Part shown: in pieces, positions 1,613 through 29,704 of the stretch
Layout of the letters: the number at the start of each line of letters is the position of its first letter
Position numbering within the stretch: the stretch's first letter is position 1
Assembly (NCBI GenBank): GCA_964478015.1
Contig: CAYZGM010000001.1
Location: forward strand, 2,981 to 66,980
Source of the DNA: an uncultured Planctomycetia bacterium
GTDB taxonomy: Bacteria > Omnitrophota > Gorgyraeia > 2-02-FULL-51-18
Direction of reading: 5' to 3'
Length of the DNA stretch: 64,000 nucleotides
The notes under the pieces: generated by a model
The model's database searches: none
Seen by the model: the letters and a program-made list of their open reading frames with translations, nothing else
What the model was told of the DNA's origin: nothing
Program-made: the position numbers and the translations under genes

Positions 1613-2524
1613 TTAGTTAAAAATAGACCTAGATAAGACCCACTGAGAAATTTTGAGGAAGATCGCTTCGCGGGTTGTTTCGTTCAGGAGCTCATGATAC
1701 AGTCCCTCGTAGATCTCGAGCTCTTTATTCTGAGAGCGTAATTTTTCAAAGAAACGTACGGTGGCCTCCCGGGACACCACCCGGTCGTCCCCCGCCTGAA
1801 GAACCAATGCCGGGATATGAATACGCGAGGCCGTCGTATCCGCACAACGGATCATACGAACGAGTTCTGAATAAAGTCTTGCGCTAATCTGGTGATGAAT
1901 CAGGCGGTCAGAGCCGTACTTTTTTTTAATCTCCGCGTCGTGTGTTAAAAATGCGGGATCTACGCGGTTATTCTGGGTGAGATCCGAAAAAAGGCAAGAT
2001 CCGCCGCAGGCCAAAAAATGTCTCCAACGCGGAATCTTCAAACTGATCCCGAAGTTTGGGGAACTTAAGACCAGCCCCCTGGCCTCAATTTCCGGGCGCT
2101 CAGCCAGGAAAGACGAAACCACCAACCCCCCGTAACTGTGTCCCATAAAAAATAGACCGGAAACACCCGCTTTCTCTTTGGCTAGACGATAAACAACGGC
2201 CAGATCAGAAAAATAATCAGAAAACTTTCGGAGGCAGCCGCGCTTGCCGCCGCTTTGCCCGAAACCCCTTAGATCGGGGAGATAGGAGGCAATTCCCGCT
2301 GAGGCAAGGTGTTCAGCGAATGCCGTGTAGCGTCCGCCATGTTCCCCCATCCCGTGAACGACGATCATGGCTGTTTTTGTCGCCGAGGATGGCGTTAACG
2401 CTCGAAAAAAAATAGGGGTCTCGTCATGCGAGACGAAGCGGTGCTCAGACCAAAGGTCCAACGAAGCATTACCTTTCGGCGGCATAAAAAGACTGTAGAA
2501 GGTCTTTGTACCGATTCTGAACAA
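1613..2524 (-). CDS. Alpha/beta hydrolase, lysophospholipase / monoacylglycerol lipase family
   Basis: VVHGMGEHGGRY (HG oxyanion region), GHSYGG nucleophile elbow (GxSxG), C-terminal acid/His region; overlaps the acyl-CoA synthetase 3' end, so the true start is probably the internal MPPKG. Confidence 0.8.
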   Translation of the reverse strand: MFRIGTKTFYSLFMPPKGNASLDLWSEHRFVSHDETPIFFRALTPSSATKTAMIVVHGMGEHGGRYTAFAEHLASAGIASYLPDLRGFGQSGGKRGCLRKFSDYFSDLAVVYRLAKEKAGVSGLFFMGHSYGGLVVSSFLAERPEIEARGLVLSSPNFGISLKIPRWRHFLACGGSCLFSDLTQNNRVDPAFLTHDAEIKKKYGSDRLIHHQISARLYSELVRMIRCADTTASRIHIPALVLQAGDDRVVSREATVRFFEKLRSQNKELEIYEGLYHELLNETTREAIFLKISQWVLSRSIFN

Positions 2525-4337
2525 CCTCCCTTTTGACTTTCAGGGTCGGTGTTAGCTCGCCGGAGGCCTGACTAAAATCTTTATCCAGAAGGGCAAAAAA
2601 TTTGATGCGTTCGTAGGGCGCAAAATCTTTCATGAGTTCTTGCACGCGTCCATCCATGAATTGAAAAATCTTTGGATTGTGTAGCAGATCCTGGTAATCT
2701 CGGTGCTCAATTTTTTGCTCAAGGGCCCATTCCGCGAGAGGGGCCTCCTTAGGAACAATCAGCGCGGTGATGCATTTTTTCCCCTCGCCAAAAAGGACGC
2801 AGCGCAAAATGTAGGGGTCCTTTTCAAGGAGAACTTCGATCGGTCTGGGGGTTATTTTTTTACCGCCGGAGGTGACGATAAGCTCCTTTTTTCTTCCCGT
2901 GATAAACAAAAATCCCTCGGAGTCAAGGTGGCCCAGATCCCCGGTATAAAACCAGCCGTCTTTGAGCGCCTGCGCGGTCTCGACCGGCTTTCGAAAGTAG
3001 CCTTTCATGACGCAGGCGCTTCGTGTGATGATCTCGCCATCCTCGGAAATCTTTACTTCCACCGTCCGAAGCGGAATACCCACGGAGCCAAAACGGTGCC
3101 GATCGTGACGATTCACCGTGATGACCGGAGCTGTCTCCGTCAATCCGTATCCCTCGTAGATCATGACGCCGAGGTCACAAAAAAACTCACCAATCTCCTT
3201 TGACAACGGGGCTCCGCCTGACACGCAAAAACGCAGACGCCCTCCGAGCCCCTTTTTAAACTTATGGTAAACCAAGATTTCGGCCAGGGGCGTCGAAAGC
3301 TTGGCCATCCAGCCTGTTTTTTCTCCCACCCTTTTTCTACGTCCCAGTTCGCGAGCGTAAGCGAACAGTCCTTGCCGGAACGGACTTGCCGAGCGCACCT
3401 TGTCCATGACCCGTGTTTGGATTTTCTCAAAGAACCGAGGGACTCCCAAAATAAAGGTTGGTCGTATCTCAGAAATATTCTGCGGGACGGTATCCAAATT
3501 TTCTGCATAGGCGATCGTCGCGCCCAGACGGACCATCAGGTAATGTCCGGCCATTCGTTCGAACACATGGCAAAGCGGCAGGAAAGATAAGTGTACGTCG
3601 GCGGAGCTCATTTTCAGGGTTTCTTCCGACAGAACAACATTTTGGATGAAATTCGAGTGTGTCAGCATCACTCCTTTTGGGGTCCCGGTCGTTCCGGAAG
3701 TGTAAATGATGCTGGCCAGCTCAGACGACCCGACATTTTTCCGGATCCGGTCCAAATCCTCATGCGTTGGCGTGTTCCAAAGATCCGAGGTTCCAAAGAT
3801 AGGGATCTCAATCTCCCTGCGATCTAGGAGCACGGAGCTTTCAAAAGCGATCATTCCTCGCAGGGACGGTACTTGTCTTTGAATGGAGCTTACTTTCTGG
3901 AACAGAGCTTTATTGGAAAGCGCAAGCCACTCACAGGCGGAATCCACAAGAATGTATTGGATTTCGGAGGCGCTGAGCGTGGTGTAGATCGGAACCGTGG
4001 AAGCGCCGATCGAAAGGGCCGCAAAGTCTGTGATGAGCCATTCAGGCCGGTTTTCCGAGAGGATCCCGATCCGATCGCCAGTTTTTACACCCTGCTTTAA
4101 AAAAAAAGAAGCCAGGGCATTCACGCGGCGCTGGACCTGATCCCAGCCCAGGCCTTGATATTTTTGATTCTCCTTGTGGAATAGGGTTTTTTTTGTCGGG
4201 GTTCGAAAGGATGTTTCTTGCAGCAAAAGCGCCAAATTCTGCGGTGGTGTATTCAAGAGGCCTTTGGTGGGGTCAATTGTCCGTAAATTTCGGTTGGCGT
4301 TTTTCAATGAATGCCCGAATACCCTCCCGCATGTCAT
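2469..4337 (-). CDS. Long-chain fatty acid--CoA ligase (AMP-binding superfamily)
   Basis: YTSGTTGTPKGVMLTH AMP-binding motif, GYGLTET, TGDLG, C-terminal GELTPTLKVKR; the ORF-track start at 4478 overlaps the crotonase gene, so the internal Met at 4337 is more plausible. Confidence 0.85.
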   Translation of the reverse strand: MTCGRVFGHSLKNANRNLRTIDPTKGLLNTPPQNLALLLQETSFRTPTKKTLFHKENQKYQGLGWDQVQRRVNALASFFLKQGVKTGDRIGILSENRPEWLITDFAALSIGASTVPIYTTLSASEIQYILVDSACEWLALSNKALFQKVSSIQRQVPSLRGMIAFESSVLLDRREIEIPIFGTSDLWNTPTHEDLDRIRKNVGSSELASIIYTSGTTGTPKGVMLTHSNFIQNVVLSEETLKMSSADVHLSFLPLCHVFERMAGHYLMVRLGATIAYAENLDTVPQNISEIRPTFILGVPRFFEKIQTRVMDKVRSASPFRQGLFAYARELGRRKRVGEKTGWMAKLSTPLAEILVYHKFKKGLGGRLRFCVSGGAPLSKEIGEFFCDLGVMIYEGYGLTETAPVITVNRHDRHRFGSVGIPLRTVEVKISEDGEIITRSACVMKGYFRKPVETAQALKDGWFYTGDLGHLDSEGFLFITGRKKELIVTSGGKKITPRPIEVLLEKDPYILRCVLFGEGKKCITALIVPKEAPLAEWALEQKIEHRDYQDLLHNPKIFQFMDGRVQELMKDFAPYERIKFFALLDKDFSQASGELTPTLKVKREVVQNRYKDLLQSFYAAER

Positions 4338-5058
4338 GGGTGGGTATGAGGGTTCGGAATTCAGCTTCCTCGATAGACATCCCCTCTTCGAGATTTTTAT
4401 CCAGCCCCTGGCGCATTGCGCGCATCGCCGCCCGAATGGCGGGGAGACCGTGACGCGAAATTTTTTTTCCCATTTCACGGGCCGCTTTGATCAGCGATCC
4501 ATCTGAGACGACCCGGTTGACTAGCCCAATGCGAAGGGCTTCTTGCGGTGTAATCAAGTCCCCCGTCAAGATAAGTTCCGCTGCGCGGCTTGGACCCACC
4601 ACGCGGGGCAAACGCTGACTCCCCCCAAATCCGGGAATAATGCCGAGCGTGATCTCGGGTTGGGCAAAACGCGTGCGGTCAGAGGCGATGCGCAGGTGGC
4701 AGGCCAGAACAAGTTCCTGCCCTCCTCCGACGCAGGCACCGTGAATCGCGGCAATCACTGGTTTTTCAGAATTTTCGATCTTATTGAAAACTTTTTGCCC
4801 CTTTTGAATCACTTTTGCAATTTCTTCCGGCGTGGTGAGGGAGGCCATTTCTTTCAGGTCTACGCCCGCTATAAAAACATTCGGGATGGCGCTGACGATG
4901 ACAATGACTTTTGTTTTTGGTTCCGCGTTCAGCTCATCCGTTGCCTGCTCTAGTTCCCCCAAGAGCTGAGTGCCCAGCGCATTCACGGGGGGCCTGTTGA
5001 TGCTTAAAAAGGAAACCCCGTCTTCCGTGGAGATGCTTAAAAATTGAAATTGGGTCAT
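4273..5058 (-). CDS. Enoyl-CoA hydratase/isomerase (crotonase family)
   Basis: ISINRPPVNALG, AAIHGACVGGGQELVLACHLRIAS, PEITLGIIPGFGGSQRLPR crotonase fold motifs. Confidence 0.9.
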   Translation of the reverse strand: MTQFQFLSISTEDGVSFLSINRPPVNALGTQLLGELEQATDELNAEPKTKVIVIVSAIPNVFIAGVDLKEMASLTTPEEIAKVIQKGQKVFNKIENSEKPVIAAIHGACVGGGQELVLACHLRIASDRTRFAQPEITLGIIPGFGGSQRLPRVVGPSRAAELILTGDLITPQEALRIGLVNRVVSDGSLIKAAREMGKKISRHGLPAIRAAMRAMRQGLDKNLEEGMSIEEAEFRTLIPTHDMREGIRAFIEKRQPKFTDN

Positions 5059-5084
5059 TGGTCCTCCTTGGTCTTAAGAACGCC

Positions 5085-6308
5085 TTACGCGTATTCTAGA
5101 AATCCCCGCTTTGTTTTTTTTCCCAGAAACCCCGCCAGCACCATTCGTCGAATCACGGGAGCTGGCCAAAACCGGTCGCCATAGAGCTTGTGCAGCGATT
5201 CCAGCTCCTGAAGCACAGCATCGATCCCAAGTTCGTCTGCGTATTGGAGCAAGCCGCCTTTGGCTTGAGGAAAACCGATTCCCGCAAGAACAGCTACATC
5301 GATGTCTGCGGGTGAGGCCACTTTTTCCTGAAGACATAAGGCCGCTTCATTGATCATAGCCATGAGAAGGCGATTGGCTGAAAAAGGTGCTTTTTTGGTG
5401 CCGGGCGCCGATGCTTTCTTCTGAATGCCGGCGAGAAGATGTTCCACCGTTCGGTCGTTTTCTTCCCCTCCATAATTGTAGAAGCCCGCACCGTTTTTAA
5501 CGCCAAAACGATTTTTTTGGTAAACCTCCTCCCAAAGTTGGGCAGGAGCCATACGGGGTCCGTACTCCGCAAGCAGAATTCCCACGACATCATGGCAAAT
5601 GTCGAGCCCGATCGTGTCGACCAGAATGAATGGCCCCATCGGAAAGCCAAACTCGACCATCACTCGGTCTATTTCTTTCAAAGACGTACCCTCTTGAGCG
5701 CAGAACGCCGCTTCGTTCAGATAGGGCATGAGAAGACGATTGACCAAAAAACCCGCGCACTCATTGACGCGCACAGGAATTTTTCTTAGGCCCTCGCAAA
5801 ACGCAATGGAATCTGCCACGGTTTCGTCGGAGGTGGCCAGGCCCGGAATGACCTCGATGAGTTTCATCACATGCGCTGGGAAAAAAAAGTGGATGCCAAC
5901 AACTTTTTCGGGGCGTTTGGTCACGGCACCCAAAGCACTGATGGATAGCGCCGATGTGTTGCTCGCCAACAAAGCATGCTCGGGTAGAATGGCGTCTAAT
6001 TCCTGGAATATTTTTTTCTTGATGTGAATTTTCTCAGGAACAGCTTCGATGACGATATCGACGTCCTTGAGAGACGTAAGATCTGTCGTCACGCTGACGA
6101 GAGACATTTTCGACTCCATCTCAGACGGAGACATTTTTCCTTTGTCTACGCGGGCTTGGTAGATCTTTCGAATGTTTGCGAGCGCCTGCTGCGCCAGCTT
6201 GTCATCCACTTCACGCAACACGACGGGCAAGCCAGAATAGCTGATCACCTGCGCGATCCCGGAGCCCATGGCCCCGCCGCCAACCACCGCCGCCTTATAA
6301 ATAGTCAT
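5085..6308 (-). CDS. 3-hydroxyacyl-CoA dehydrogenase (NAD-binding, with a duplicated C-terminal domain)
   Basis: MTIYKAAVVGGGAMGSGIAQV Rossmann motif; 3HCDH N and C domains; start placed at the internal ATG 3 nt after the thiolase stop. Confidence 0.9.
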   Translation of the reverse strand: MTIYKAAVVGGGAMGSGIAQVISYSGLPVVLREVDDKLAQQALANIRKIYQARVDKGKMSPSEMESKMSLVSVTTDLTSLKDVDIVIEAVPEKIHIKKKIFQELDAILPEHALLASNTSALSISALGAVTKRPEKVVGIHFFFPAHVMKLIEVIPGLATSDETVADSIAFCEGLRKIPVRVNECAGFLVNRLLMPYLNEAAFCAQEGTSLKEIDRVMVEFGFPMGPFILVDTIGLDICHDVVGILLAEYGPRMAPAQLWEEVYQKNRFGVKNGAGFYNYGGEENDRTVEHLLAGIQKKASAPGTKKAPFSANRLLMAMINEAALCLQEKVASPADIDVAVLAGIGFPQAKGGLLQYADELGIDAVLQELESLHKLYGDRFWPAPVIRRMVLAGFLGKKTKRGFLEYA

Positions 6309-7504
6309 TTTCTCTCCAAGACGACCGCCGCACCTTGACCGCCGCCGATGCACAGTGAGGCGACGCCGTAACAGAGGCTCTTTCGTTTCATCTCGTGCAA
6401 CAGGGTCAGGATGATTCTGGTCCCGGTGGTTCCGACGGGATGTCCGAGGGCGATGGCACCGCCATTGACGTTCATGAGGTTACGATCAAGACCCAGTACT
6501 TTTTCACAGGCGATCACCTGCGCGGCGAAAGCCTCGTTCAATTCTATCAATTGGATGTCTTTGAGCGTCAGGCCCGCTTTTTTAAGCGCCAGAGGGATTG
6601 CCACTGTCGGGCCAATGCCCATCCGTTGCGGTTCCACGCCGCCAAACGCGTAAGCGCGGACGGTCCCCAACACCTGCTTGTATCCTAATTCATCTGCTTT
6701 TTTTCGCGTCATGATAAGAAGAGCTGCTGCGCCATCGGAGATTCCACAGGCGTTTCCCGGCGTCACCGTTCCGTTCTCCTTGAACGTGGTCGGATAGAGC
6801 GCGAGCATTTGCTCGTTGAGCGCCGGATTTGGACCCTCGTCCTGCATCACCGTTTCGGGCGGCAAGGGTTTCCCCATGGTTCTTTTTTGGACCAGGACGG
6901 GGGCGATTTCTTCCTTGAACTTTCCCTCGCGTGTGGCGCGAAAAGCGCGCTGATGGCTCAGCACCGCATACTGGTCTTGCTCAGACCGGGTGATCTTGAA
7001 TTCTTCCACGAGATTCTCGGCGGTGCGTCCCATCAATTGACCGCAGATAGGGTCCGTGAGCCCCTCCCACAGAGCATCGATCATTTCGGTGCTGCGCATG
7101 CGTTTTCCAAACCGTAGATCACGGCTAACATAGGGTTGGGTTGACATGGACTCTGTCCCGCCCACGATTTGGACATTCGCATCCCCAGAGAGAATATTTT
7201 GGCAGCCGCTCACCACCGCCTGAATGCCAGAAGCGCAGTTTCTTGCCACCGTGTACCCAGGAACTGTTTTGGGAATGTCGGCCATCAACGAGATGACGCG
7301 CGCAATATTCGGCGCATCGCTGGCCTGTCCCACGCAGCCGAAGATGACCTCGTCCACCGAGGCCGGCGTGATTTTTGTTTTTTCCAGGAGAGCCCGCACA
7401 ACAACCTCGCCGAGTTTTTGCGCGGATAGATCGCGAAAAGCTCCGCCAAACACGCCCTGCGGCGTACGCACACCATCTACGATCACGATCTCTGTTTCAG
7501 GCAT
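6305..7504 (-). CDS. Acetyl-CoA acetyltransferase / 3-ketoacyl-CoA thiolase
   Basis: VARNCASGIQAV active-site Cys region, NVNGGAIALGHPVGTTG and CIGGGQGAA C-terminal thiolase motifs. Confidence 0.9.
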   Translation of the reverse strand: MPETEIVIVDGVRTPQGVFGGAFRDLSAQKLGEVVVRALLEKTKITPASVDEVIFGCVGQASDAPNIARVISLMADIPKTVPGYTVARNCASGIQAVVSGCQNILSGDANVQIVGGTESMSTQPYVSRDLRFGKRMRSTEMIDALWEGLTDPICGQLMGRTAENLVEEFKITRSEQDQYAVLSHQRAFRATREGKFKEEIAPVLVQKRTMGKPLPPETVMQDEGPNPALNEQMLALYPTTFKENGTVTPGNACGISDGAAALLIMTRKKADELGYKQVLGTVRAYAFGGVEPQRMGIGPTVAIPLALKKAGLTLKDIQLIELNEAFAAQVIACEKVLGLDRNLMNVNGGAIALGHPVGTTGTRIILTLLHEMKRKSLCYGVASLCIGGGQGAAVVLERK

Positions 7505-7527
7505 GGGCCCCTCGTTTTGTATTTTTA

Positions 7528-9615
7528 TCAGACATTCTGCTGCGATACAAGCGCTTTTATCTTCGGAAGAAGCCGCAGGGTCTCTTCTTCTCCCCGATGA
7601 ATGAAAGGGGCCGGTTTATAGAAGTTGACCCAGCTCGAGTTCGGAAGAACCGGCCTCACAAGAACGTCTGCGCCCTCCCCCTCAATGTCAGCAATTTCCG
7701 CTTCCATCGATTGGATCGTGTTCATCAAAATATCGAATAAGTTGGGCGAAAAAAACCGGGCCATGGATTGCTTGAACCAAAAAAGACCTTGGGCTGCGAA
7801 GCCTTTCTCCATTGCTTCGGACCGGGCTTTTTCTACGGCCTCATTCTTGATCAGTCTTTTTTCCATCATGTCCTTGCTCGTGGGAAAGACGTTTACGGCG
7901 ATCACCTTGTTGGCTCCGGCCTGATGGAGCGCACGAATGGGCAAAGGGTTTAAAATACCGCCGTCGACGATGACATTCCCATCCATCATGATCGGTTTGA
8001 TGATGGCCGGGATCGCGATCGAGGCCCTGACAGCGTCTGCCACGGAACCCGATTCGAACAGGAAGCTTTGCCGTGTGGTGAGATTGGCCGCTGTTACTTT
8101 TAGAGAGATGCGGCATTGATCGAAGCTTTTATTGCCAAGATACTTGCGAAAATGGCGGATTACCTGTTGCCCGTGAAGCAGACCCCTGTAGGGGAAGAGG
8201 TTGATGTCAATAAGATTGCTCATCAGAAGCCTCAAATTAATCTGCATGGCGGCTTTCTCGATCTCCATGGGATTGAGCCCCACCGCATAGAGCGAGCCGA
8301 TCAAAGCGCCTATGCTGGAACCGGCGATGATATCCACGGGTATTTTTTCGCGCTCCAGTACTTTTAAGACGCCAATATGCGCCAGGCCAAAGGCCGCACC
8401 GCTGCCCAGCGCTAACCCGACAAGATTCCCGCTCAGGTATCGTGCCATGTGGCGTATGCGGCGCGAGTATTCCGCGTCAGGGTTTTCGGTGACAATGGGC
8501 CACCCAGCCCCCTGGTCCTGACTGGCCGGTGCGATCGGCACGGAAAAACATCGCTTTTTCCCAAACATTTCTTGTCTTAGCGCAGCCGTTGTGTGAGCGC
8601 CGAAAGCGACCTCATGGATCACGATGACGATCTTGTCCTCGGGGAATGACAACGATTTTTCGATGTCACGCAAGGCATCCCGAGATTCCGCAAGGCTATT
8701 GAGATGACTATCTGTGACGAGAAATAAAAAATCGGACTGCGATACGGCTTTCATGGACGCCTCATCGGGCTCCGGGCTCAGATCCATGACGATGAAGCGG
8801 AAATCGATCGACAGATGATTCAAAAGCGAAATCAACGTCGCGTGGGCATCCGTGTCTTTCGGGTCGTAGGATAAACAAAGAAAATCAAAACCGGCGCGAT
8901 GCTTCAAAAGACGGCTTTTCAATTCTTCGGCGGAAAAAGATTCGATGTTCTGGAAATTTCTGAGCGGAATCTTTTCAATGCGTTCACCGAGCGACGGGCC
9001 CTCTGATCCCGAGGAGGACAGATCCAGCAGAACCGTCTTTTGGCGGGTCTGCTCCAGAAGGCTGGCCGCCAAATTCATGGAGAAAAAACCTCTCTGGGTT
9101 TTTGGCAAACTTCCATAGATCGAGAGAATATCGCTTTTAAAAAGCGAGCGGGAACGAGTTTCGGTTATCTTGAGGCGAGAACTCAGGCGCCGGCTAAGTT
9201 CAAGCGAAATCGTGGCATTACGTTCGATGGATTTTTTAAAACCATCCTTTTTTATTTCGAGTACCAGGGAATCCGAGAGAGCGTGGATTGTAGCGGAATG
9301 CGGTTGCTCCGTAAGAAGGGACATTTCGCCAAAATAATCACCGCGCCGAAGGTACGCCAGGACCTTTTTCTTGTCGAGTACCGTGACGAATGCCTCGAAG
9401 CGGCCCGAAACAATGACGTAAAAACTCTCCGCCTCCCCGCCCTCCCGGTAAACAGTTTCATCTTTTTTGTACTCGACCAGGCGCATCAGCTGGCTGATGG
9501 ATCTTAGCTCCCAAGGACTTAATCCTGCAAAGAGCGGGCATTGGCCCAACAGCACAACCTTGTCAATTTTCTGGAAACGATTGCCTGCGTCCTGACCGAG
9601 CGGCGCCGAGTCCAT
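7528..9615 (-). CDS. Cyclic-nucleotide-binding-domain-containing patatin-like phospholipase (NTE-like architecture)
   Basis: N-terminal CAP_ED domain (GDYFGEMSLL ... HSATIHA); C-terminal patatin domain with GSGAAFG oxyanion loop, GSSIG nucleophile motif and VIVDGG catalytic Asp; start overlaps the PilZ stop (TAATG). Confidence 0.85.
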   Translation of the reverse strand: MDSAPLGQDAGNRFQKIDKVVLLGQCPLFAGLSPWELRSISQLMRLVEYKKDETVYREGGEAESFYVIVSGRFEAFVTVLDKKKVLAYLRRGDYFGEMSLLTEQPHSATIHALSDSLVLEIKKDGFKKSIERNATISLELSRRLSSRLKITETRSRSLFKSDILSIYGSLPKTQRGFFSMNLAASLLEQTRQKTVLLDLSSSGSEGPSLGERIEKIPLRNFQNIESFSAEELKSRLLKHRAGFDFLCLSYDPKDTDAHATLISLLNHLSIDFRFIVMDLSPEPDEASMKAVSQSDFLFLVTDSHLNSLAESRDALRDIEKSLSFPEDKIVIVIHEVAFGAHTTAALRQEMFGKKRCFSVPIAPASQDQGAGWPIVTENPDAEYSRRIRHMARYLSGNLVGLALGSGAAFGLAHIGVLKVLEREKIPVDIIAGSSIGALIGSLYAVGLNPMEIEKAAMQINLRLLMSNLIDINLFPYRGLLHGQQVIRHFRKYLGNKSFDQCRISLKVTAANLTTRQSFLFESGSVADAVRASIAIPAIIKPIMMDGNVIVDGGILNPLPIRALHQAGANKVIAVNVFPTSKDMMEKRLIKNEAVEKARSEAMEKGFAAQGLFWFKQSMARFFSPNLFDILMNTIQSMEAEIADIEGEGADVLVRPVLPNSSWVNFYKPAPFIHRGEEETLRLLPKIKALVSQQNV

Positions 9616-9986
9616 TAAACCTTACGAGTCAGCCGGCTTTCAATGAATCTGACCAGGATTTCGCGGTCCTGATCCGATATTTTGGAAAAATAAAGGGCGA
9701 GAAAGTAATCGTCGGACGAGGGGTCTTTTTCGCGTCGCACCACCACTGCTTTCATGCGCAGGGTTTTGCCGTGCTTCGCATTCTTGTCCACTGGCGGGAG
9801 CATCAGCGCAAGCGCCACCTGCGTCATCAGAGGAATATTTTTATCCACCAGACACAATGCCCCATGTTCGCTGATGTTGACTGTCCGCGCCCGGGCCTCA
9901 TAATTCTGGTGGCCTATCTTAAAGGGCAGCTCCTCGTCAACTCGGACCGAGCGCCGCCGATCTAAGATCGGTTTTGGGGTTCTCAT
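9615..9986 (-). CDS. PilZ domain protein (c-di-GMP receptor)
   Basis: RRRSVR (RxxxR) and NISEHGA (D/NxSxxG) motifs in correct spacing; start taken at internal MRTPKPIL, overlapping the upstream gene stop by 4 nt. Confidence 0.7.
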   Translation of the reverse strand: MRTPKPILDRRRSVRVDEELPFKIGHQNYEARARTVNISEHGALCLVDKNIPLMTQVALALMLPPVDKNAKHGKTLRMKAVVVRREKDPSSDDYFLALYFSKISDQDREILVRFIESRLTRKV

Positions 9987-10267
9987 TCCGCTGTGGCAGC
10001 GGGCGCGGACTGGGCTTGGGCCGCTTTCGCCGCCGCCTCTTCCTGGGCTTTCTTGGTCTTCGCGGCTTCCTGCGTGACATATAGCTGAAAGCACTGTTTG
10101 TTAGCGAAATATTTTCCATCACGATAGTACCAGTCCTTACGGCGAATACGCTTGTTGGACTGCGCGCAGTTGGTGGGACGCGATTTTTTCTTTTTGAGTT
10201 TTTTTAAAGGCGTCTCAGCAGATTCTGTCTTGGCTGCAGCGGACTTTGTTTCTTCTACCATGATCAT
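9983..10267 (-). CDS. Small basic Lys/Ala-rich protein of unknown function (about 94 aa)
   Basis: MIMVEETKSAAAKTESAETPLKKLKKKKSRPTNCAQSNKRIRRKDWYYRDGKYFANKQCF... with a GGAG SD 5-8 nt upstream of the ATG at 10267; embedded between two PilZ genes. Confidence 0.4.
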   Translation of the reverse strand: MIMVEETKSAAAKTESAETPLKKLKKKKSRPTNCAQSNKRIRRKDWYYRDGKYFANKQCFQLYVTQEAAKTKKAQEEAAAKAAQAQSAPAATAE

Positions 10268-10373: not shown

Positions 10374-10754
10374 CTAGGCTTGAGCTTGTTTCTTGTTCGT
10401 CCTCAACCATTCACGGTAAACATACTCGAGAACACGCGTTCGATCGTGCAGGCTGATTTTTGTAAGACGTATTCCCGCCTCGAGCCCGTCAGCCCAAGCG
10501 ACTTTTCCTGTGGCAAAGACGGGTAGGTTGTCTCCCGGAACATTCATGCAGACTTCGATGGGAGTTCCGGAAGCGACGGTTTCTTTGAAGCCAACACGCA
10601 TCCCCTCCCGGCTCAAGTCTTTCGCCAGCGTTTTCCCAAATATGGGATTCAGCGTCAGCGTACGAAATTCCAAATCGAGCGGCGCATTGAAGCGCATGAA
10701 TTTACGTCTTTCAGTGGCGGTGAGGTTGGGTCGTGATCCCGAATCGTCAGTCAT
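10374..10754 (-). CDS. PilZ domain protein (c-di-GMP receptor), second copy
   Basis: RRKFMR (RxxxR) and DLSREGM (DxSxxG) motifs; start overlaps the HTH gene stop by 8 nt. Confidence 0.7.
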   Translation of the reverse strand: MTDDSGSRPNLTATERRKFMRFNAPLDLEFRTLTLNPIFGKTLAKDLSREGMRVGFKETVASGTPIEVCMNVPGDNLPVFATGKVAWADGLEAGIRLTKISLHDRTRVLEYVYREWLRTNKKQAQA

Positions 10755-10947
10755 TTTTAAAGTAACGGATTAGGTCGCTTTTTAGGAAGCGGTAATTGTC
10801 CCCCACCTTGCGGCCCGGGATTTTTTTAGATTTGACGAGTTTGTACAGCGTTTGCCGACTAATGCTAAGAAACTGGCAGGCGTTTTCCGTTGTCAACGCC
10901 TTATCAACGCTCTCGAGCTCGGCTTCCTGTAAATTATTTTTATTCAT
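10747..10947 (-). CDS. Excisionase-family helix-turn-helix DNA-binding protein (MerR-like HTH_17)
   Basis: LTTENACQFLSISRQTLYKLVKSKKIPGRKVGDNYRF is a typical excisionase/HTH_17 signature; GGGAGAG SD 7 nt upstream of the ATG at 10947; a putative promoter places the TSS downstream of the longer ORF-track start. Confidence 0.6.
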   Translation of the reverse strand: MNKNNLQEAELESVDKALTTENACQFLSISRQTLYKLVKSKKIPGRKVGDNYRFLKSDLIRYFKND

Positions 10948-10997: not shown

Positions 10998-11026
10998 ATT
11001 AAAACAATTCAGTCTGTTTATGTCAA
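10998..11026 (-). promoter_or_regulatory. Putative sigma70 promoter of the HTH-PilZ-patatin operon (-35 TTGACA, 17 bp spacer, -10 TTTAAT)
   Basis: Minus-strand reading: TTGACA (11026-11021), 17 nt, TTTAAT (11003-10998). Confidence 0.35.
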
Positions 11027-11073: not shown

Positions 11074-11104
11074 GGAATAAAAAAGCCGGGCTTTCGTGCC
11101 CGGC
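11074..11104 (-). terminator. Rho-independent terminator downstream of the TIGR04073-like gene
   Basis: Perfect 7 bp stem GCCGGGC/GCCCGGC (11085-11104) with a 6 nt loop, followed on the minus strand by a T-run (plus strand aataaaaaa at 11076-11084). Confidence 0.5.
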
Positions 11105-11129
11105 TCTCACAAAAAAACCAGCGGATTAC

Positions 11130-11508: not shown

Positions 11509-11590
11509 GTTATGTCAAATTTAATTTGCAAAAATGCATAAAAAATCTTTGTGTTCCCCTGATAACATTGTTAGAATCCTGGGGATAGCT

Positions 11591-12406
11591 ATGTATGAGT
11601 CATTCTACGCGCTAAGGCAGAAGCCTTTTTCGGTCACGAGCAACCCGTCGTTCCTTTTTTTAAGTGAACGCCACAGGGAGGCCTTGGCTCATCTGACCTA
11701 CGGGATCAGGGAGCGCGTGGGCTTCATCGAGATCACCGGCGAGGTTGGGACTGGAAAAACGACGATTTGCCGTACGCTTTTGAATCAGCTAGACGAGAAG
11801 ACAAAGACCGCGTTTATCTTCAACTCCAATTTATCGGAGCTTCAGCTGATGCAGACGATCATTGAGGATTTCGGCATTAAAACGGCTCAGAGAAGTAAGA
11901 GCGCCCTTTTTTTTGAGCTCAATCGTTTTCTGATTGAGCAGCTGGCTCTAGAAAACAACGTTGTCCTCATCATTGATGAGGCCCAAAACCTAAGCCTGAA
12001 GCTGTTGGAGCAGGTACGCATGCTGTCGAATCTTGAATCGGAAAATGAGAAGTTGCTCCAAATCGTGCTGGTGGGTCAGCCGGAACTGCGCGACAAGCTG
12101 AACTCGCCATCCCTGCGGCAGTTGCGCCAGAGGATTGCGGTGCGTTACCATATTGAGGCTTTGAGCAAGGAGGAAGTGCCTCTCTACATTGGCCATCGCC
12201 TGGGGTTGGCGGGCGCGAACGGCGCTTCGCCCATCTTTGACGCCGAGGCAATCGAGGAGATCTACCGGTATTCCAAGGGGATTCCAAGACTAATCAACAT
12301 GGTTTGCAACAAAGCGCTTTTAACCGGGTTTGTCCGGGAGGAGCGCCTTATTTCAGAGGAGATCATCAAACGGTCGATCCGCGAACTGGAAGGAAACTTC
12401 ACATGA
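11591..12406 (+). CDS. ExeA/GspA-like AAA ATPase (PEP-CTERM-locus type secretion ATPase, TIGR03015-like)
   Basis: TGEVGTGKTTICRTLL Walker A, VVLIIDEAQNL Walker B, ExeA-like N-terminus YALRQKPF; start chosen at MYESF with a GGGGA SD 6 nt upstream. Confidence 0.8.
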   Translation: MYESFYALRQKPFSVTSNPSFLFLSERHREALAHLTYGIRERVGFIEITGEVGTGKTTICRTLLNQLDEKTKTAFIFNSNLSELQLMQTIIEDFGIKTAQRSKSALFFELNRFLIEQLALENNVVLIIDEAQNLSLKLLEQVRMLSNLESENEKLLQIVLVGQPELRDKLNSPSLRQLRQRIAVRYHIEALSKEEVPLYIGHRLGLAGANGASPIFDAEAIEEIYRYSKGIPRLINMVCNKALLTGFVREERLISEEIIKRSIRELEGNFT

Positions 12407-12972
12407 GCATTATCAATGAGGCATTGAAAAAAGCTGGTCAACCGATTATCCACCAAGCGGACGAAAAGAAGTCCGGGGCGTCCTTGCGTCCGCAGATCGA
12501 GCGTCAGCAACAGAGACCGCGCTCCCATTGGGGGCCATTTTTCATCGTGGGCGTGGTGGCGCTGATCACGGGCCCAATCTTGGTGCCCCTGTTTCACGGA
12601 GCGTCACAAAAAAATAGAACCGGGGACACGGCGCAATCGGCGCGATTGGCGTCGATGGGCGAGGCAGTTTCTGGGAGTTTTTCGCTGGGTCAGGAGAATT
12701 CAAGCGCCTTGGCGCAATTTGCCATTGAAGAAACGCCAACCCCGCCGTCTCCACCCCCCGCGTGGGCTGGTTTCGGTTCAAAAAAAAGTTCCGCCTCCAA
12801 ATTTGATTTGAGCGGCATCGTTTACTCGGAAAGCGATTCCTATTGCCTGCTCAACGGAAAGGTTTTGAAAGTCGGCGAGAAAATCGGCGGCGCAACTTTA
12901 GTGCAGATCTTGCCGAACCAAGTTACGCTGGATTACCTTGGGGAGAAGATCATGATCTCCGCCTCTTCCTGA
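12403..12972 (+). CDS. GspB/ExeB-like membrane protein (N-terminal cytoplasmic tail, one TM, Pro-rich linker, C-terminal T2SS-B-like domain)
   Basis: TM segment WGPFFIVGVVALITGPILVPLF; C-terminal LSGIVYSESDSYCLLNGKVLKVGEKIGGATLVQILPNQVTLDYLGEKI resembles the GspB C-domain; ATGA overlap with the ATPase gene. Confidence 0.6.
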   Translation: MSIINEALKKAGQPIIHQADEKKSGASLRPQIERQQQRPRSHWGPFFIVGVVALITGPILVPLFHGASQKNRTGDTAQSARLASMGEAVSGSFSLGQENSSALAQFAIEETPTPPSPPPAWAGFGSKKSSASKFDLSGIVYSESDSYCLLNGKVLKVGEKIGGATLVQILPNQVTLDYLGEKIMISASS

Positions 12973-12985
12973 GAGGGTTTGGGAC

Positions 12986-14107
12986 TCAGCCTTTTCTTTT
13001 TTCGAGCGCTCCTAAAATTACCGCAGCCGGAACATCCGACACGACTACAACTTTCCCCGTTCTTACGGGAAGGACAAAGCGGTTCTTTTTTTGAATAGAT
13101 TTTTTATCATAGTGGATAGACTTGAGAATGTTTTCGGTTGAAAGGCCCTTGAAGTAAAGCGGCAGGTTAAACTTCATCAAGACTTTTTCCAGCCTCTGCG
13201 TGAGACCGGCATCTTTGAGCACCCCTAGCTCCCGCGAGATATCGCAGGCCACCAGCATCCCTATGCCCACCGCTTCCCCGTGCGTGTAGGCTCTTGAATA
13301 TGCCGACACGGTTTCGATCGCATGTCCGGCCGTGTGGCCAAAATTAAGAATGATTCGGGTCCCCGTTTTGTCCAATTCATCGGCTTCGACCACGTCAGAT
13401 TTGATTTTGGCGCAGCGCTCGATCACATTTTCAAGGCGGGTTTCATCTTTGCGGAGAGCCTCAAGTCCCAAGGATTCCAGAAGTTCAAAAAGTGTCGCGT
13501 CCTTGATCACCCCATACTTGATGATCTCCGCAAAACCATCGCTCCAGACCCGGTCCGGCAGGCTTGAGAGCATGGTGATGTCACTTAGCACGAGGGACGG
13601 CTGGTAAATGCTTCCGAGGAGATTTTTCCCCTCCGGCAGGTCCACACCCGTTTTTCCGCCGATGGCGGAGTCCACCTGTGCGGTGAGGGTCGTTGGAACC
13701 TGAACGTAGGGAATTCCGCGACGGTACGTCGCCGCTGCGAAACCGGTCAGATCCCCAACAACTCCTCCGCCAAGAGCCAGCAAAGCCAAGGGCCTGCCCT
13801 TTCCATCCCTGGCTGCTAGGAATTTGATAAGGCGTGACCAAACCGCCTGGGTTTTGGTGGCCTCAGAGCTTTTTGCTTGGGGCATTAAGAACAGAGCTTG
13901 GTCAAGAGCTTCTCTGGAAAGAGCGCTGTGGATGGCCTGCCCGTAGTACACCCAAATGGGCTTTTGCGACACGACGACGAGCGTGTGGTTTGAAAAACCG
14001 GCTTGTTTGAGGTGGGCGCCCAATCGTGTCAACAGCCTGGGCCCAATGAGTATTTTGTAGGCTCTGTCTTTCAGGCGGACGCGGACAGATCTCATCCGAT
14101 AGGACAC
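12986..14107 (-). CDS. aroB: 3-dehydroquinate synthase
   Basis: GGGVVGDLTGFAAATYRRGIPYVQVPTTLTAQVDSAIGGKTGV nucleotide/metal-binding motifs of AroB. Confidence 0.9.
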   Translation of the reverse strand: MSYRMRSVRVRLKDRAYKILIGPRLLTRLGAHLKQAGFSNHTLVVVSQKPIWVYYGQAIHSALSREALDQALFLMPQAKSSEATKTQAVWSRLIKFLAARDGKGRPLALLALGGGVVGDLTGFAAATYRRGIPYVQVPTTLTAQVDSAIGGKTGVDLPEGKNLLGSIYQPSLVLSDITMLSSLPDRVWSDGFAEIIKYGVIKDATLFELLESLGLEALRKDETRLENVIERCAKIKSDVVEADELDKTGTRIILNFGHTAGHAIETVSAYSRAYTHGEAVGIGMLVACDISRELGVLKDAGLTQRLEKVLMKFNLPLYFKGLSTENILKSIHYDKKSIQKKNRFVLPVRTGKVVVVSDVPAAVILGALEKRKG

Positions 14108-14418
14108 CCTGCAGAAATTTCTTTATCCAGGGTGAGCAAAGTCAATTTGTCGCCATCCTTAGCCGCCAAAAGCATCCCCTGGGATTCCACGCCGCGAATA
14201 ATGCTGGGAACAAGATTCGTAACAACAACCACCATTTTTCCGAGCAATTCCTCTCGGGAGTAGAACTTCTTGATGCCTGCAACCACGGTCTTTTTTTCTG
14301 CACCCAGATCTATGTCAACTCGCCACAGGCGGTCCGCTCCGGGGATCTCCTGGGCATCCAGGATCTTGGCCGCTCGAAGCTGAGTCTTCTTGAAATCTTC
14401 GAGGGTCAGATCGCTCAT
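14092..14418 (-). CDS. tRNA-binding domain protein (CsaA / Trbp111 / MetRS C-domain-like)
   Basis: LRAAKILDAQEIPGADRLWRVDIDLGAEKKTVVAGI ... VVVVTNLVPSIIRGVESQGMLLAA OB-fold tRNA-binding domain signature. Confidence 0.8.
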   Translation of the reverse strand: MSDLTLEDFKKTQLRAAKILDAQEIPGADRLWRVDIDLGAEKKTVVAGIKKFYSREELLGKMVVVVTNLVPSIIRGVESQGMLLAAKDGDKLTLLTLDKEISAGCPIG

Positions 14419-14723
14419 TTCTTATCAGATTTTCCGGCTGCGCCTTTTCCGCCGGGAGCTGCTGAGCCCTTGGCGGCAACGGGAGCTGCCGTTGTCGCGT
14501 CCGCTTTTGCCGGAGCTCCCGCACCCGCTGCCCCCGCTTCAGCCACCGCTTTTTCCTTCTTAACCTTGATACGCTGCATCTTTACCTTTGGGATGCCAAG
14601 AACCGAAATGCTCTCGCCCCACAGACTTTTATCTTTCAAAACTTTCAAACGCTCATAGCGTTTAAGCACCGAACGATGCTTCTTGCCTTTTCCTCCCGCG
14701 CGCAAACTCGAATGTATCGACAT
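14415..14723 (-). CDS. Small basic protein with an Ala/Gly/Lys-rich low-complexity tail (histone-H1-like composition); coding status uncertain
   Basis: MSIHSSLRAGGKGKKHRSVLKRYERLKVLKDKS ... AEAGAAGAGAPAKADATTAAPVAAKGSAAPGGKGAAGKSDKK; no family motif recognised. Confidence 0.3.
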   Translation of the reverse strand: MSIHSSLRAGGKGKKHRSVLKRYERLKVLKDKSLWGESISVLGIPKVKMQRIKVKKEKAVAEAGAAGAGAPAKADATTAAPVAAKGSAAPGGKGAAGKSDKK

Positions 14724-14767
14724 TCCTCGCCCTCCTCGATTTCGTTGAAGCCGGGTATTCTACCATA

Positions 14768-15361
14768 TTACCGTCGGCGCAGAAAACAATCCTTGTATTT
14801 GCTCGAAAAGCGCGCCTGATCCTTTTTCGCCTCCTCCTTAGAGGCGTATTGTCCGGCGCATACCTGAAAATACTCACCGCTGGGAATGATCGAACTGGTA
14901 AAACCCATTTGTTGGAGGGCCGCCATCTCTGCCTCTGCGAGCGATTTCTTGCGGTGGGTCACCAGCTGGATCGTATAAGGTTTTGCGGACGCTTCCACGG
15001 CTGCCGGTCCCGGGTTTTGGGCCCGTTCCGGTGCCATGGAAATGGTCGGGGAAACTGCCGGTGTTGTCTGCGATCTCTTCTGGTGGGTTTCGATCGTTGG
15101 GGCGGCTGGGCTCGCTTGGATGGTCCGGGATGAGGTTAGGGCAGACCGCACAATAGATTTGCCGCGCAGGACACCCAAGAAAAATACTCCGCAAAGAAGC
15201 AGAATCACGAGAATGCCGCCCATCAACAACTGCTCTGTGTTGGTGCTCAGCAGAATCGGTTTTTGCGACCGCGGCAGGCCCGGAAAACGCTCCGCTTTTT
15301 TTGGCTCTTGCGAAAACTGCTCAAAAAGTTCTTGCTGGGTCTCTTTCGACTTTGGATCCAT
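14768..15361 (-). CDS. SPOR domain protein (peptidoglycan-binding, cell-division associated), single TM
   Basis: TM segment LLMGGILVILLLCGVFFLGVL; C-terminal YTIQLVTHRKKSLAEAEMAALQQMGFTSSIIPSGEYFQVCAGQYASKEEAKK fits the SPOR fold pattern. Confidence 0.7.
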   Translation of the reverse strand: MDPKSKETQQELFEQFSQEPKKAERFPGLPRSQKPILLSTNTEQLLMGGILVILLLCGVFFLGVLRGKSIVRSALTSSRTIQASPAAPTIETHQKRSQTTPAVSPTISMAPERAQNPGPAAVEASAKPYTIQLVTHRKKSLAEAEMAALQQMGFTSSIIPSGEYFQVCAGQYASKEEAKKDQARFSSKYKDCFLRRR

Positions 15362-15413
15362 CTACCATTCTTTCTACGTGTTAAATTAAAAGTGAGGATT
15401 CCGTAGTATACAA

Positions 15414-16001
15414 TTACTGCCAGCTCGCTTCAAGCATTCGGCCGGAAGCTCCGTACAACACCCAGCGCCCTCCGCTGGAAGATATCTTTGCAACGCGAGT
15501 GCCGTCGCCAAATTTTGGAAAACGCCTGTCGACCAATTTTGAGAATGGCTCTAGCGAATTTTCCGGAACGCATAGCCGCAAGAAAATCTTTTGGATTTTT
15601 CCGTTTTTCAAAGAAAATCCCGCGCGCAGCGCCGCCTCTCCGATCCTGCCATCAAGCAACCGCACGCTCCACCCTCCCCGCTTCGGGAGCCACACCCAGC
15701 GAGAATCCTGCAACTCCAAGCGCTCCGTTCCGTTGAAATTTTTAAATATTTGGTTCAAAGAAAAAAGCTGTGTCTTAGACATCTTCCCGAGGGTTATTTT
15801 TTTTATTGAGAATTCGGCGCCAAAAAGAAAGAATTTCGTGTGAATTCCCTGAATTTGAATGGGGTGGCCTGCCATGCGCGCGCATTGGATCGATAACCCT
15901 CGATCTACCAAGGGGTTAGGGAATAAGATCAGGGCGAGTAAAAATGCAGACGCACCGGCAAGGATCGTCATCACAGGTCGGAGGAGCCGACGTTTATGCA
16001 C
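15414..16001 (-). CDS. Hypothetical membrane-anchored protein; start overlaps the stop of the GAF/HD-GYP gene
   Basis: N-terminal hydrophobic anchor VMTILAGASAFLLALILF; no recognisable domain; 8 nt overlap with the upstream gene suggests co-translation. Confidence 0.4.
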   Translation of the reverse strand: MHKRRLLRPVMTILAGASAFLLALILFPNPLVDRGLSIQCARMAGHPIQIQGIHTKFFLFGAEFSIKKITLGKMSKTQLFSLNQIFKNFNGTERLELQDSRWVWLPKRGGWSVRLLDGRIGEAALRAGFSLKNGKIQKIFLRLCVPENSLEPFSKLVDRRFPKFGDGTRVAKISSSGGRWVLYGASGRMLEASWQ

Positions 16002-26149: not shown

Positions 26150-26170
26150 GTTTAGCGAAAGCCCGGTAAG

Positions 26171-26623
26171 TTACTCGATCACAAAAAGGGGCTGGCCAAA
26201 TTCAACAGGATCCCCGTTGTGAACCAGAATCTCGGAGATTTTTCCGCGAACCTCTGATTTGATCTCATTCATAAGTTTCATGGCTTCGATGACGCAAATC
26301 ACCTGTCCGACTTCGACTTGATCTCCGATCTGGACAAATGGCGCGGCATCGGGTGCGGGCGAGGAATAGAAAGTGCCGACCATCGGGGATTTGATTGTCT
26401 GGCGCTGTGCAGTCGGAGTGGCTGCCTCGCGTGGCGCGGTCTCGGAGACCCGCGCTTGGGCTGCCTGTGCGCGAACGGGCGACTCACCGGACATACTGGA
26501 CTCAATCACGCCTCCGGACCCTTTCCTTAGGCGTATTTTCAAACCGTCCTTTTCCATCTCAAATTCCATAAGTCCATGCTCGTTCATCAGCTGGATCATC
26601 TCTTTAATCTCTTTTAAATTCAC
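26171..26623 (-). CDS. accB: Biotin carboxyl carrier protein of acetyl-CoA carboxylase
   Basis: EAMKLMNEI biotinyl-lysine motif, Pro/Ala-rich linker. Confidence 0.9.
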   Translation of the reverse strand: MNLKEIKEMIQLMNEHGLMEFEMEKDGLKIRLRKGSGGVIESSMSGESPVRAQAAQARVSETAPREAATPTAQRQTIKSPMVGTFYSSPAPDAAPFVQIGDQVEVGQVICVIEAMKLMNEIKSEVRGKISEILVHNGDPVEFGQPLFVIE

Positions 26624-29695: not shown

Positions 29696-29704
29696 GAAGC
29701 GCTC

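Follow-up and report, generated by a model that had tools for sequence, protein, structure and literature searches.

A likely operon, conserved in the Omnitrophota, with a plausible role in regulated lipolysis and fatty-acid use

I describe here a gene cluster built around a three-domain patatin-type lipase, found in 64,000 nucleotides of contig CAYZGM010000001.1 (GenBank assembly GCA_964478015.1), from an uncultured groundwater bacterium that GTDB places in the Omnitrophota. This whole 64-kb stretch of DNA is hereafter referred to as the window. On its minus strand, the lipase gene is followed by genes for a thiolase, a 3-hydroxyacyl-CoA dehydrogenase, an enoyl-CoA hydratase, an acyl-CoA synthetase and a second acyl-hydrolase. 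The identities of these genes are clear, their catalytic motifs are intact, they are compactly organized on one strand, and the linkage between the lipase gene and fatty-acid catabolism genes is conserved across the phylum. It is therefore plausible that the cluster is a conserved, Omnitrophota-specific operon for regulated lipolysis and fatty-acid use. In the reading that I favor, and consider somewhat probable, it would act as a regulated module that deacylates glycerolipids, activates the released fatty acids and feeds them into beta-oxidation, with the first oxidation step supplied from elsewhere in the genome.

The Omnitrophota are uncultured and mostly ultra-small, and their energy sources and dependence on hosts are debated (PMC10066038). 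Lipid catabolism is not discussed in an Omnitrophota physiology paper that was searched, and a literature search, mostly of open-access papers, turned up neither the lipase architecture nor an association of such a lipase with fad genes, an absence that is weak evidence. From the cluster one can frame a testable hypothesis on how these organisms obtain carbon and energy, or on how they remodel their membranes.

Lipid and fatty-acid enzymes of the cluster

Protein families were assigned with Pfam and NCBIfam, and all coordinates given below for the cluster are window positions on the minus strand. An earlier note on this DNA had placed six genes here, from a patatin phospholipase to a lysophospholipase-like hydrolase, and all six lie where stated, with strong scores in both databases that bear out their families. 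The lipase itself (7528–9615, 695 amino acids (aa)) matches the Pfam families cNMP_binding (E = 6e-24) and Patatin (E = 6.5e-32).

Next to it is the thiolase (acetyl-CoA C-acyltransferase; 6305–7504, 399 aa), which matches Thiolase_N (E = 2e-81) and Thiolase_C (E = 1.2e-47), and scores 447 bits against TIGR01930, for which the cutoff is 240. The 3-hydroxyacyl-CoA dehydrogenase (5085–6308, 407 aa) contains 3HCDH_N (E = 3.5e-62) and, in two stretches, the 3HCDH C-terminal domain. It corresponds to the C-terminal two-thirds of FadB/FadJ, aligning to FadJ residues 307–699 with E = 1.6e-107. The enoyl-CoA hydratase (4273–5058, 261 aa) is a crotonase-fold protein (ECH_1, E = 1.3e-66), with the enoyl-CoA hydratase model PRK07658 as its best NCBIfam match (E = 1.3e-79). 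It is followed by an AMP-forming acyl-CoA synthetase of ∼600 aa (2469–4337, start uncertain), which is ACSL/FadD11-like and matches AMP-binding (E = 2e-78) and AMP-binding_C_3. Its matches to FadD11 (E = 7e-87) and to the long-chain-fatty-acid--CoA ligase PRK06187 (E = 1e-79) are below the respective cutoffs, and because its scores are below every equivalog cutoff, any assignment of chain length is tentative. Together, this gene set covers fatty-acid activation and steps 2–4 of beta-oxidation, without step 1 in the window.

The last enzyme is a serine hydrolase (1613–2524, 290–303 aa) that matches the full Hydrolase_4 profile (E = 5.5e-65) and possesses the nucleophile motif GHSYGG. It had been described as lysophospholipase-like. 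Its assignment as a hydrolase stands, but all except the weakest of its 15 nearest solved relatives are monoacylglycerol lipases (MGLs). It aligns over its full length with the Mycobacterium tuberculosis MGL (6eic, E = 2.4e-34), and human MGLL is matched at ∼E = 2e-25, whereas Escherichia coli lysophospholipase L2 covers just its N-terminal half (E = 1.2e-19). From these matches the protein appears to resemble an MGL, and "monoacylglycerol-lipase-like" is the better label.

The enzyme genes are tightly packed, as had been described, with spacers of 26 nucleotides (nt) at most, down to overlaps. The lipase stop codon (7530–7528) and the thiolase ATG (7504) are 23 nt apart, with a GAGGGG ribosome-binding site. 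The thiolase and dehydrogenase genes overlap by 4 nt (dehydrogenase ATG at 6308), and a 26-nt gap separates the dehydrogenase and hydratase genes. The remaining junctions overlap or abut, depending on the choice of start codon: the synthetase could start at ATG 4337, overlapping the hydratase gene by 65 nt, or at TTG 4256, 16 nt past the hydratase stop, and the hydrolase at TTG 2524 or at ATG 2485, either of which overlaps the synthetase stop. At the lipase–thiolase junction (7504–7528) there is no hairpin (fold z = +0.3), and a consensus scan identified neither promoter nor terminator, which agrees with the earlier remark that none is obvious there; across the region, consensus promoter and terminator matches are no commoner than in shuffled sequence. 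Because most related genomes repeat this adjacency, the compactness of the gene run is beyond chance.

Conservation of the linkage among relatives

A scan with one genome per GTDB species yielded 80 loci (identified below by numbers with the prefix L), in which homologues of the window genes were located by tblastn. Linkage was counted among the 33 of these loci in which the lipase is full-length and flanked on each side by 2.5 kb or more. Fatty-acid catabolism genes are found in 28 of the 33, and in 27 such a gene shares the strand of the lipase gene and is no more than 200 nt away from it; the earlier note had named the absence of linkage in related genomes as a refutation. The linkage spans lipase identities of 30–72% and at least five arrangements.

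The gene order of the window, from the lipase through the thiolase, dehydrogenase, hydratase and synthetase to the Hydrolase_4 enzyme, is also found in L005, L006, L011 and L032. In L021, L022, L027 and L029 the thiolase is missing from this order, and L015 further lacks the hydrolase. A shorter version, in which the lipase gene is followed by the synthetase and the Hydrolase_4 genes without any of the oxidation trio (thiolase, dehydrogenase and hydratase), occurs in L003, the closest species-level relative (72% identity), and in L008, L010 and L016; L009 begins in the same way, and its contig stops within the synthetase gene. Among close relatives, the lipase is most persistently accompanied by the synthetase and the Hydrolase_4 protein rather than by the trio. 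In one clade the trio is replaced by a single gene, between the lipase and synthetase–Hydrolase_4 genes, for a protein like the electron-transfer flavoprotein (ETF)–ubiquinone oxidoreductase ETF-QO (L017 12040–13347, L019 12053–13360, L024 2196–3503). Pfam identifies this protein as an FAD-dependent oxidoreductase of the FixC/ETF-QO-like type, with a segment resembling the ubiquinone-binding part of ETF-QO.

Other loci include the enzyme for the first oxidation step. In L036 (15812–18803), L037 (5858–8846) and L048 (15553–18467), the hydratase and synthetase genes are separated by an insert that encodes a D-2-hydroxyacid dehydrogenase and a 632-aa acyl-CoA dehydrogenase whose C-terminal domain is of the ACAD9/ACADV kind, and the same insert is present in L046 (11087–13664), as far as the contig end. 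The presence of this very-long-chain-type enzyme inside the cluster supports long-chain degradation as a family-wide theme. In the most distant clade (L056, L058, L060) an acyl-CoA dehydrogenase gene is directly 5′ of the lipase gene, with FadA and a fused FadB further upstream, and an acyl-CoA dehydrogenase gene adjoins the lipase gene in L025, L040, L041 and L044 as well. Finally, in L007 (59% lipase identity) the trio is replaced, in the same slot, by canonical FadA and a 737-aa fused FadB (12120–15520). Such a non-orthologous displacement points to selection on function. More generally, the linkage has survived both rearrangement and displacement of this kind, a strong argument that the lipase functions together with fatty-acid catabolism, and the functional chain proposed earlier, from the hydrolases through the synthetase to the beta-oxidation enzymes, has strong comparative evidence in this synteny.

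The lipase has more than 100 full-length relatives, at 37–86% identity, nearly all from metagenome-assembled genomes (MAGs) of Candidatus Omnitrophota, and an identical protein was found by sequence search on two short contigs from Hainich groundwater. Where these relatives are named, it is as "NTE family protein" or "patatin-like phospholipase family protein". An exhaustive HMMER search found the full-length architecture in roughly a hundred representatives of clusters at 50% identity. Matches from outside the phylum (L061–L082) mostly cover the patatin domain alone, with L063, L065, L068, L077 and L081 matching along most of the protein, and none of these loci shows fad synteny. One further locus, L059 (6522–14385), from an Acidobacteriota MAG (Candidatus Acidiferrales), encodes a short patatin-only homologue 1.5 kb upstream of thiolase, FadB and acyl-CoA dehydrogenase genes, and because of it the linkage of patatin to fad genes may not be exclusive to the Omnitrophota.

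Architecture of the lipase

Conservation of the lipase was analyzed with 81 aligned relatives, from which an AlphaFold2 model was also generated (pLDDT 86, pTM 0.83). Three domains are visible: a cyclic-nucleotide-monophosphate (cNMP)-binding-like sensor (residues ∼20–150), a degenerate ParA/MinD-like domain (∼160–395), and a patatin domain of the RssA/PlpD type (∼399–695). The corresponding Pfam matches span residues 47–133 for cNMP_binding and 401–563 for Patatin. Foldseek matched each domain separately, and retrieved CRP and PKA-R for the sensor, the ParA-family ATPase 3ea0 for the middle domain (target TM score 0.79), and PlpD for the patatin domain (E = 2e-19, target TM score 0.85), with CapV and CapE farther away (0.53–0.64).

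The RssA model aligns end to end with the patatin domain (residues 399–690, E = 5.7e-43). Its nucleophile motif is GSSIG, whose S434 is unchanged across all 81 aligned relatives, and in the VDGG motif the catalytic D551 and G552 are likewise invariant. The glycine-rich motif LGSGAA[FL]G is conserved in nearly all 81, without the basic residue that motifs of the G-G-x-[RK] type have at the usual position; in RssA, the oxyanion-region motif is GSGAARG. Judging by these motifs, the patatin domain has an intact Ser–Asp dyad, and lipid acyl-hydrolase activity is predicted.

In the sensor, the phosphate-binding cassette FGEMSLLTEQPHSAT aligns with those of PKG and PKA-R. G96 is invariant among the 81 relatives, while E97, S107 and A108 are each retained in at least 93% of them. 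The description of the lipase as second-messenger-gated, introduced in the earlier note, is adopted here as a hypothesis, in which the sensor may respond to a small ligand. The middle domain matches AAA_31, BcsQ (CBP_BcsQ) or CbiA in 7 of 12 relatives, and none of these in the window protein. A deviant Walker A motif (K-G-G-x-G-K-[ST]) is absent, the window protein having GSLPKTQRGF in its place; in the commonest form among the relatives, x-G-R-T, the lysine is replaced by arginine, and in others it is lost. This domain is thus likely to be a pseudo-ATPase that serves a structural or regulatory function. Sequence reading and the model reveal no signal peptide, and no long hydrophobic segment in residues 1–45. 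In the absence of a signal peptide or membrane anchor, the lipase is predicted to be cytoplasmic.

Extent of the transcription unit and upstream regulatory genes

Minus-strand genes run without interruption from 11026 to 1287, and this run is likely a single operon of ∼9.7 kb and ten or eleven genes, between two hairpin terminators; I infer co-transcription from this arrangement. The lipase gene had been placed at the head of the run. It is however the fifth gene of the unit, preceded by genes for an HTH_17 protein, a PilZ protein (PilZa), a small protein (orfX) and a second PilZ protein (PilZb), and the stop codon of the PilZb gene (9986–9615) shares a single nucleotide with the lipase ATG.

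The upstream boundary is the intrinsic terminator of the preceding TIGR04073 gene (11075–11108), with a perfect 11-bp stem (GAGCCGGGC.../...GCCCGGCUU) followed by a U-run. This hairpin has a folding free energy of −20.7 kcal/mol and a z of −3.07, and 0 of 200 shuffled sequences fold as well. It is followed by the candidate start of the unit, a promoter-like TTGACA-17 nt-TTTAAT (10998–11026) that was read from the sequence and is a consensus match alone, at 11 of 12 positions. The automatic promoter scan missed this site because it demands an A at position 2 of the −10 hexamer. At the 3′ end, a terminator-like hairpin (1287–1329), with an 11-bp G/C stem followed by UCCUUUUUU, is likely the end of the unit; its folding energy is −26.1 kcal/mol, and its z is just −1.6 because the segment is G+C-rich. 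Between it and the last enzyme gene there is a possible small open reading frame of 46 aa (1347–1487), hydrophobic (MIKHDLLSGLLYGVVLGLFFATQLSAHLPLIVILAVLFGAKMISLK) and without a family match, which may belong to the unit by its position alone.

The first gene (10747–10947) encodes a 66-aa HTH_17/excisionase-family DNA-binding protein (HTH_17, E = 8.8e-15; TIGR01764 excise, E = 2.2e-12). It starts at ATG 10947, with a GGGAGA ribosome-binding site, in an open reading frame that extends to 10995, and is kept upstream in L003–L010, L014 and L016. Its stop overlaps the start of the PilZa gene (10374–10754), which encodes a single-domain PilZ protein of 126 aa (Pfam PilZ, E = 1.8e-11) and a candidate receptor for cyclic di-GMP (c-di-GMP). 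The third gene, orfX (9983–10261), was called on ENA contig L002 and encodes a Lys/Ala-rich protein of 92 aa with the conserved motif C..RKDWYYRDGKYFANKQCF. It has no match in Pfam, NCBIfam or PADLOC, but is 59–82% conserved, and located between PilZ genes, in L003–L010 and L016. It overlaps by 4 nt the PilZb gene (9615–9986; also called on L002), which encodes another single-domain PilZ protein, of 123 aa (E = 2.5e-12). From these overlaps, the lipase is predicted to be translationally coupled to the upstream HTH_17, PilZ, small-protein and PilZ genes.

Both motifs that characterize c-di-GMP-binding PilZ domains, RxxxR and [DN]xSxxG, are found in PilZa (RKFMR and DLSREG) and in PilZb (RRSVR and NISEHG), and in nearly all homologues upstream of the lipase. 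The block HTH_17–PilZ–(PilZ)–orfX–PilZ is located 5′ of the lipase gene in relatives of at least 53% identity and in L014 (40%), and PilZ genes are found 0.3–2.5 kb upstream of it in many more distant loci. It is plausible, on the basis of these motifs and positions, that the second-messenger connection runs via c-di-GMP and PilZ at least as much as via the fused sensor.

A protein with GAF and HD_5 (HD-GYP-type) domains is encoded at 15994–17172 (minus strand). Its closest NCBIfam model is a c-di-GMP phosphodiesterase (NosR family; E = 2.7e-39, below cutoff), and c-di-GMP turnover is thus probably encoded 5 kb from the PilZ-containing operon. In some distant relatives, a stand-alone response-regulator receiver domain, and not PilZ, is encoded directly 5′ of the lipase (L026, 9539–9964); in this locus the receiver gene is preceded by genes for a Macro-domain protein and a SAM hydroxide adenosyltransferase.

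A proposed module and alternative explanations

In the module that I propose, the three-domain cytoplasmic lipase would strip one acyl chain from a glycerolipid, either a phospholipid or a neutral lipid, and the monoacylglycerol-lipase-like Hydrolase_4 enzyme would take the remaining chain off the mono-acyl product. The ACSL-type synthetase would turn the free fatty acids into acyl-CoA, and the hydratase, dehydrogenase and thiolase would perform steps 2–4 of each beta-oxidation cycle, while the acyl-CoA dehydrogenase and electron-transfer partners of step 1 would be encoded elsewhere in the genome. The N-terminal cNMP-binding-like domain would gate the patatin domain allosterically upon a small-ligand signal, and the PilZ proteins and the HTH_17 protein could link the unit to c-di-GMP signaling. 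Co-transcription, the substrates, the direction of flux and every regulatory step of this module are inferred.

Several observations weigh against this reading. A tblastn search with the 632-aa acyl-CoA dehydrogenase of L037 (E <= 1e-5) revealed no acyl-CoA dehydrogenase in the 64-kb window, although the same query detects such enzymes beside the lipase gene in 13 related loci. Contrary to the earlier claim, the beta-oxidation operon is therefore incomplete, and degradation would rely on genes outside the window. No ETF subunit was found among the window reading frames scanned with Pfam, where no query was aimed at ETF, and no acyl-CoA dehydrogenase is found within 10 kb in the closest relatives that have the trio, L005, L006 and L011. 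Five close relatives are without the trio, and oxidation is therefore not the invariant fate of the acyl-CoA. The cell also makes fatty acids, since the window encodes biotin carboxylase (AccC) and biotin carboxyl carrier protein (AccB), for the first step of fatty-acid synthesis, 15 kb from the operon (24743–26623, minus strand). Among the 33 well-flanked loci, five are without any linkage, and L034 has fatty-acid genes ∼0.8 kb off, not adjacent; the neighbors of the lipase gene in the unlinked L028 and L047 (for an autotransporter-like protein, a glycosyltransferase and an aminotransferase) provide no alternative functional clue. With regard to the sensor, in 81 of 81 members His106 occupies the position at which an Arg in PKA, PKG and CRP touches the cyclic phosphate (P-R-[ST]-A), and cAMP or cGMP can therefore not be assumed as the ligand. 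Finally, in the eukaryotic PNPLA7, which also combines cNMP-binding and patatin domains, cNMP analogues altered localization and not activity (PMC5704489).

Some of these observations would be accounted for if the unit served to remodel or recycle membrane lipids, with the lipase, the synthetase and the Hydrolase_4 enzyme as its core, acyl chains being re-activated and reused by acyltransferases, perhaps so that the composition of the membrane can be altered upon a signal, and the trio being optional. Such a core, without any oxidation gene, is what is seen in L003 (72%), L008, L009, L010 and L016, and the window, which lacks an acyl-CoA dehydrogenase, has AccB/AccC together with an LPG_synthase_TM protein (28721–29791) and an MGDG-synthase-like glycosyltransferase (37425–38537). 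I nonetheless consider this explanation unlikely, as most loci put oxidation enzymes, an acyl-CoA dehydrogenase or the ETF-QO-like gene beside the lipase, in several independent arrangements, and no acyltransferase gene is seen in the unit. Rather more doubtful is a role in drawing on neutral-lipid stores, as a bacterial counterpart of the ATGL-to-MGL cascade in which the patatin enzyme would hydrolyze tri- or diacylglycerol and the Hydrolase_4 enzyme would be a true MGL, feeding beta-oxidation in starvation under small-ligand control. Patatin-domain enzymes do include triacylglycerol lipases, such as PNPLA2/ATGL, and the solved relatives of the Hydrolase_4 enzyme, nearly all MGLs, with only a partial match to lysophospholipase L2, are in agreement with this. 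However, the patatin module is RssA/PlpD-like throughout, that is, of phospholipase and lysophospholipase types, and a partial survey of the annotated window genes found no wax-ester synthase/DGAT or other storage-lipid gene.

The trio could also run in the synthetic direction, from acetyl-CoA to C4 compounds, for butyrate-type fermentation or polyhydroxyalkanoate, in which case its adjacency to the lipase would have no pathway meaning. The three proteins do score well against models of BktB, 3-hydroxybutyryl-CoA dehydrogenase and short-chain enoyl-CoA hydratase, and the window is without an acyl-CoA dehydrogenase, as this would predict. Yet the trio is flanked by the lipase on one side and by the acyl-CoA synthetase and acylglycerol lipase on the other in many genomes, is replaced by FadA/FadB in L007, and is accompanied by a very-long-chain-type acyl-CoA dehydrogenase in other loci, and the dehydrogenase has the double C-terminal domain of the FadB/FadJ type; I regard the synthetic direction as very improbable. 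An even smaller chance is given to an anti-phage effector, a nucleotide-activated patatin that would kill the cell via membrane degradation, as in Pycsar or in the cyclic-oligonucleotide-based anti-phage signaling system (CBASS) with its effectors CapV and CapE. The principle of a patatin phospholipase that a nucleotide ligand switches on would be shared with these systems. In PADLOC, the sensor is similar to cNMP-binding domains from Pycsar effectors (E = 7e-15), the patatin domain is weakly like CBASS phospholipase effectors, and Foldseek retrieves CapV/CapE at target TM scores of 0.53–0.64. These similarities are at the domain level only, in a different domain architecture. No partner cyclase or CD-NTase family was found in the operon genes (10947–1613) or in the window reading frames scanned between 583 and 38537, and the lipase gene shows vertical conservation throughout the phylum, amid metabolic genes, unlike mobile defense islands. 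With domain-level PADLOC matches alone and no cyclase, the defense reading was rejected.

Returning to the lipolysis and fatty-acid-use module, its control may involve two inputs, in a switch specific to the Omnitrophota. The sensor, with its invariant His, would bind a ligand other than cAMP or cGMP, either a different nucleotide or a metabolite derived from lipid, a c-di-GMP signal would reach the lipase through the translationally coupled PilZ proteins docking on the pseudo-ParA domain, and lipid would be burned only in a certain lifestyle state. The pseudo-ParA domain is similar to BcsQ, a MinD-like protein from the cellulose synthase system that c-di-GMP controls. Such a switch is speculative, and I hold it to be improbable in this precise form; if true, the burning of membrane or acquired lipid in these ultra-small bacteria could, for example, depend on whether the cells are free-living or host-attached.

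Comparison with known systems

The unit is built from ordinary enzyme families, and nothing in it overturns existing knowledge. The lipase works like, and partly belongs to, the NTE/PNPLA6–PNPLA7 type, with which it shares an N-terminal cNMP-binding-type domain and an RssA-like patatin domain with a Ser–Asp dyad. As for PNPLA7, cyclic-nucleotide control of its activity is putative (PMC5704489). In contrast to PNPLA7, which has three tandem cNMP-binding domains and an N-terminal transmembrane anchor (PMC5704489), the window lipase possesses a single sensor domain and, from sequence reading and the model, no anchor. It further differs from NTE in the degenerate ParA/MinD-like domain inserted between the sensor and the catalytic domain, in the invariant His at the phosphate-binding Arg position, and in the location of its gene within a fatty-acid catabolism operon. 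It could therefore offer a compact bacterial model for cNMP-binding-type control of patatin enzymes, a question that is open for the human disease gene PNPLA6 and for PNPLA7.

Among bacterial proteins, RssA (YchK) from E. coli and PlpD from Pseudomonas aeruginosa are the best sequence and fold matches to residues 399–695 (PlpD structure 5fqu, E = 1.7e-30), but the score against the RssA equivalog model, 147 bits, is below its cutoff of 272. While PlpD is a secreted or outer-membrane type Vd passenger, the window lipase lacks a signal peptide and has two additional domains at its N-terminus.

For activation and steps 2–4, the unit uses the same families as the bacterial fad regulon and operons (FadD, FadE, FadB/FadJ, FadA/FadI), among which the Bacillus operons lcfA-fadR-fadB-etfBA and fadN-fadA-fadE were also compared. 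Relatives of the lipase locus resemble these fad systems in having an acyl-CoA dehydrogenase and the ETF-QO-like gene in the cluster. The window unit differs from them in that FadE is absent from the window and the hydratase and dehydrogenase are separate proteins; it adds two acyl-hydrolases, two PilZ genes and the HTH_17 gene, and no FadR-type regulator is seen.

The eukaryotic lipolysis cascade (ATGL, MGL, ACSL and beta-oxidation, under cAMP control) likewise combines a patatin lipase, an MGL-family enzyme, an ACSL-type synthetase and a cyclic-nucleotide-type sensor. This is an analogy of logic, and not a homologous pathway: control would here be exerted via a domain fused to the lipase, as opposed to a protein kinase.

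Neighboring genes

Downstream of the terminator of the unit, an M23 peptidase gene (1221–583) has its own promoter-like sequence, TTGCCA-18-TACAAT, at 1270–1241. On the other side of the unit, the TIGR04073 gene (11453–11130, minus strand) encodes an exosortase-system-associated small secreted protein (E = 1.3e-29). In addition to its own terminator, it has a strong promoter-like TTGACA-17-TATACT at 11518–11490, and it is located directly upstream of the HTH_17 gene in L003–L010 and L016 as well. Divergent from it, on the plus strand (11534–12972), are genes for an AAA_22 ATPase (ExeA-like) and for a protein with a weakly T2SSB-like (GspB-like) C-terminus, which may constitute a secretion-system accessory pair.

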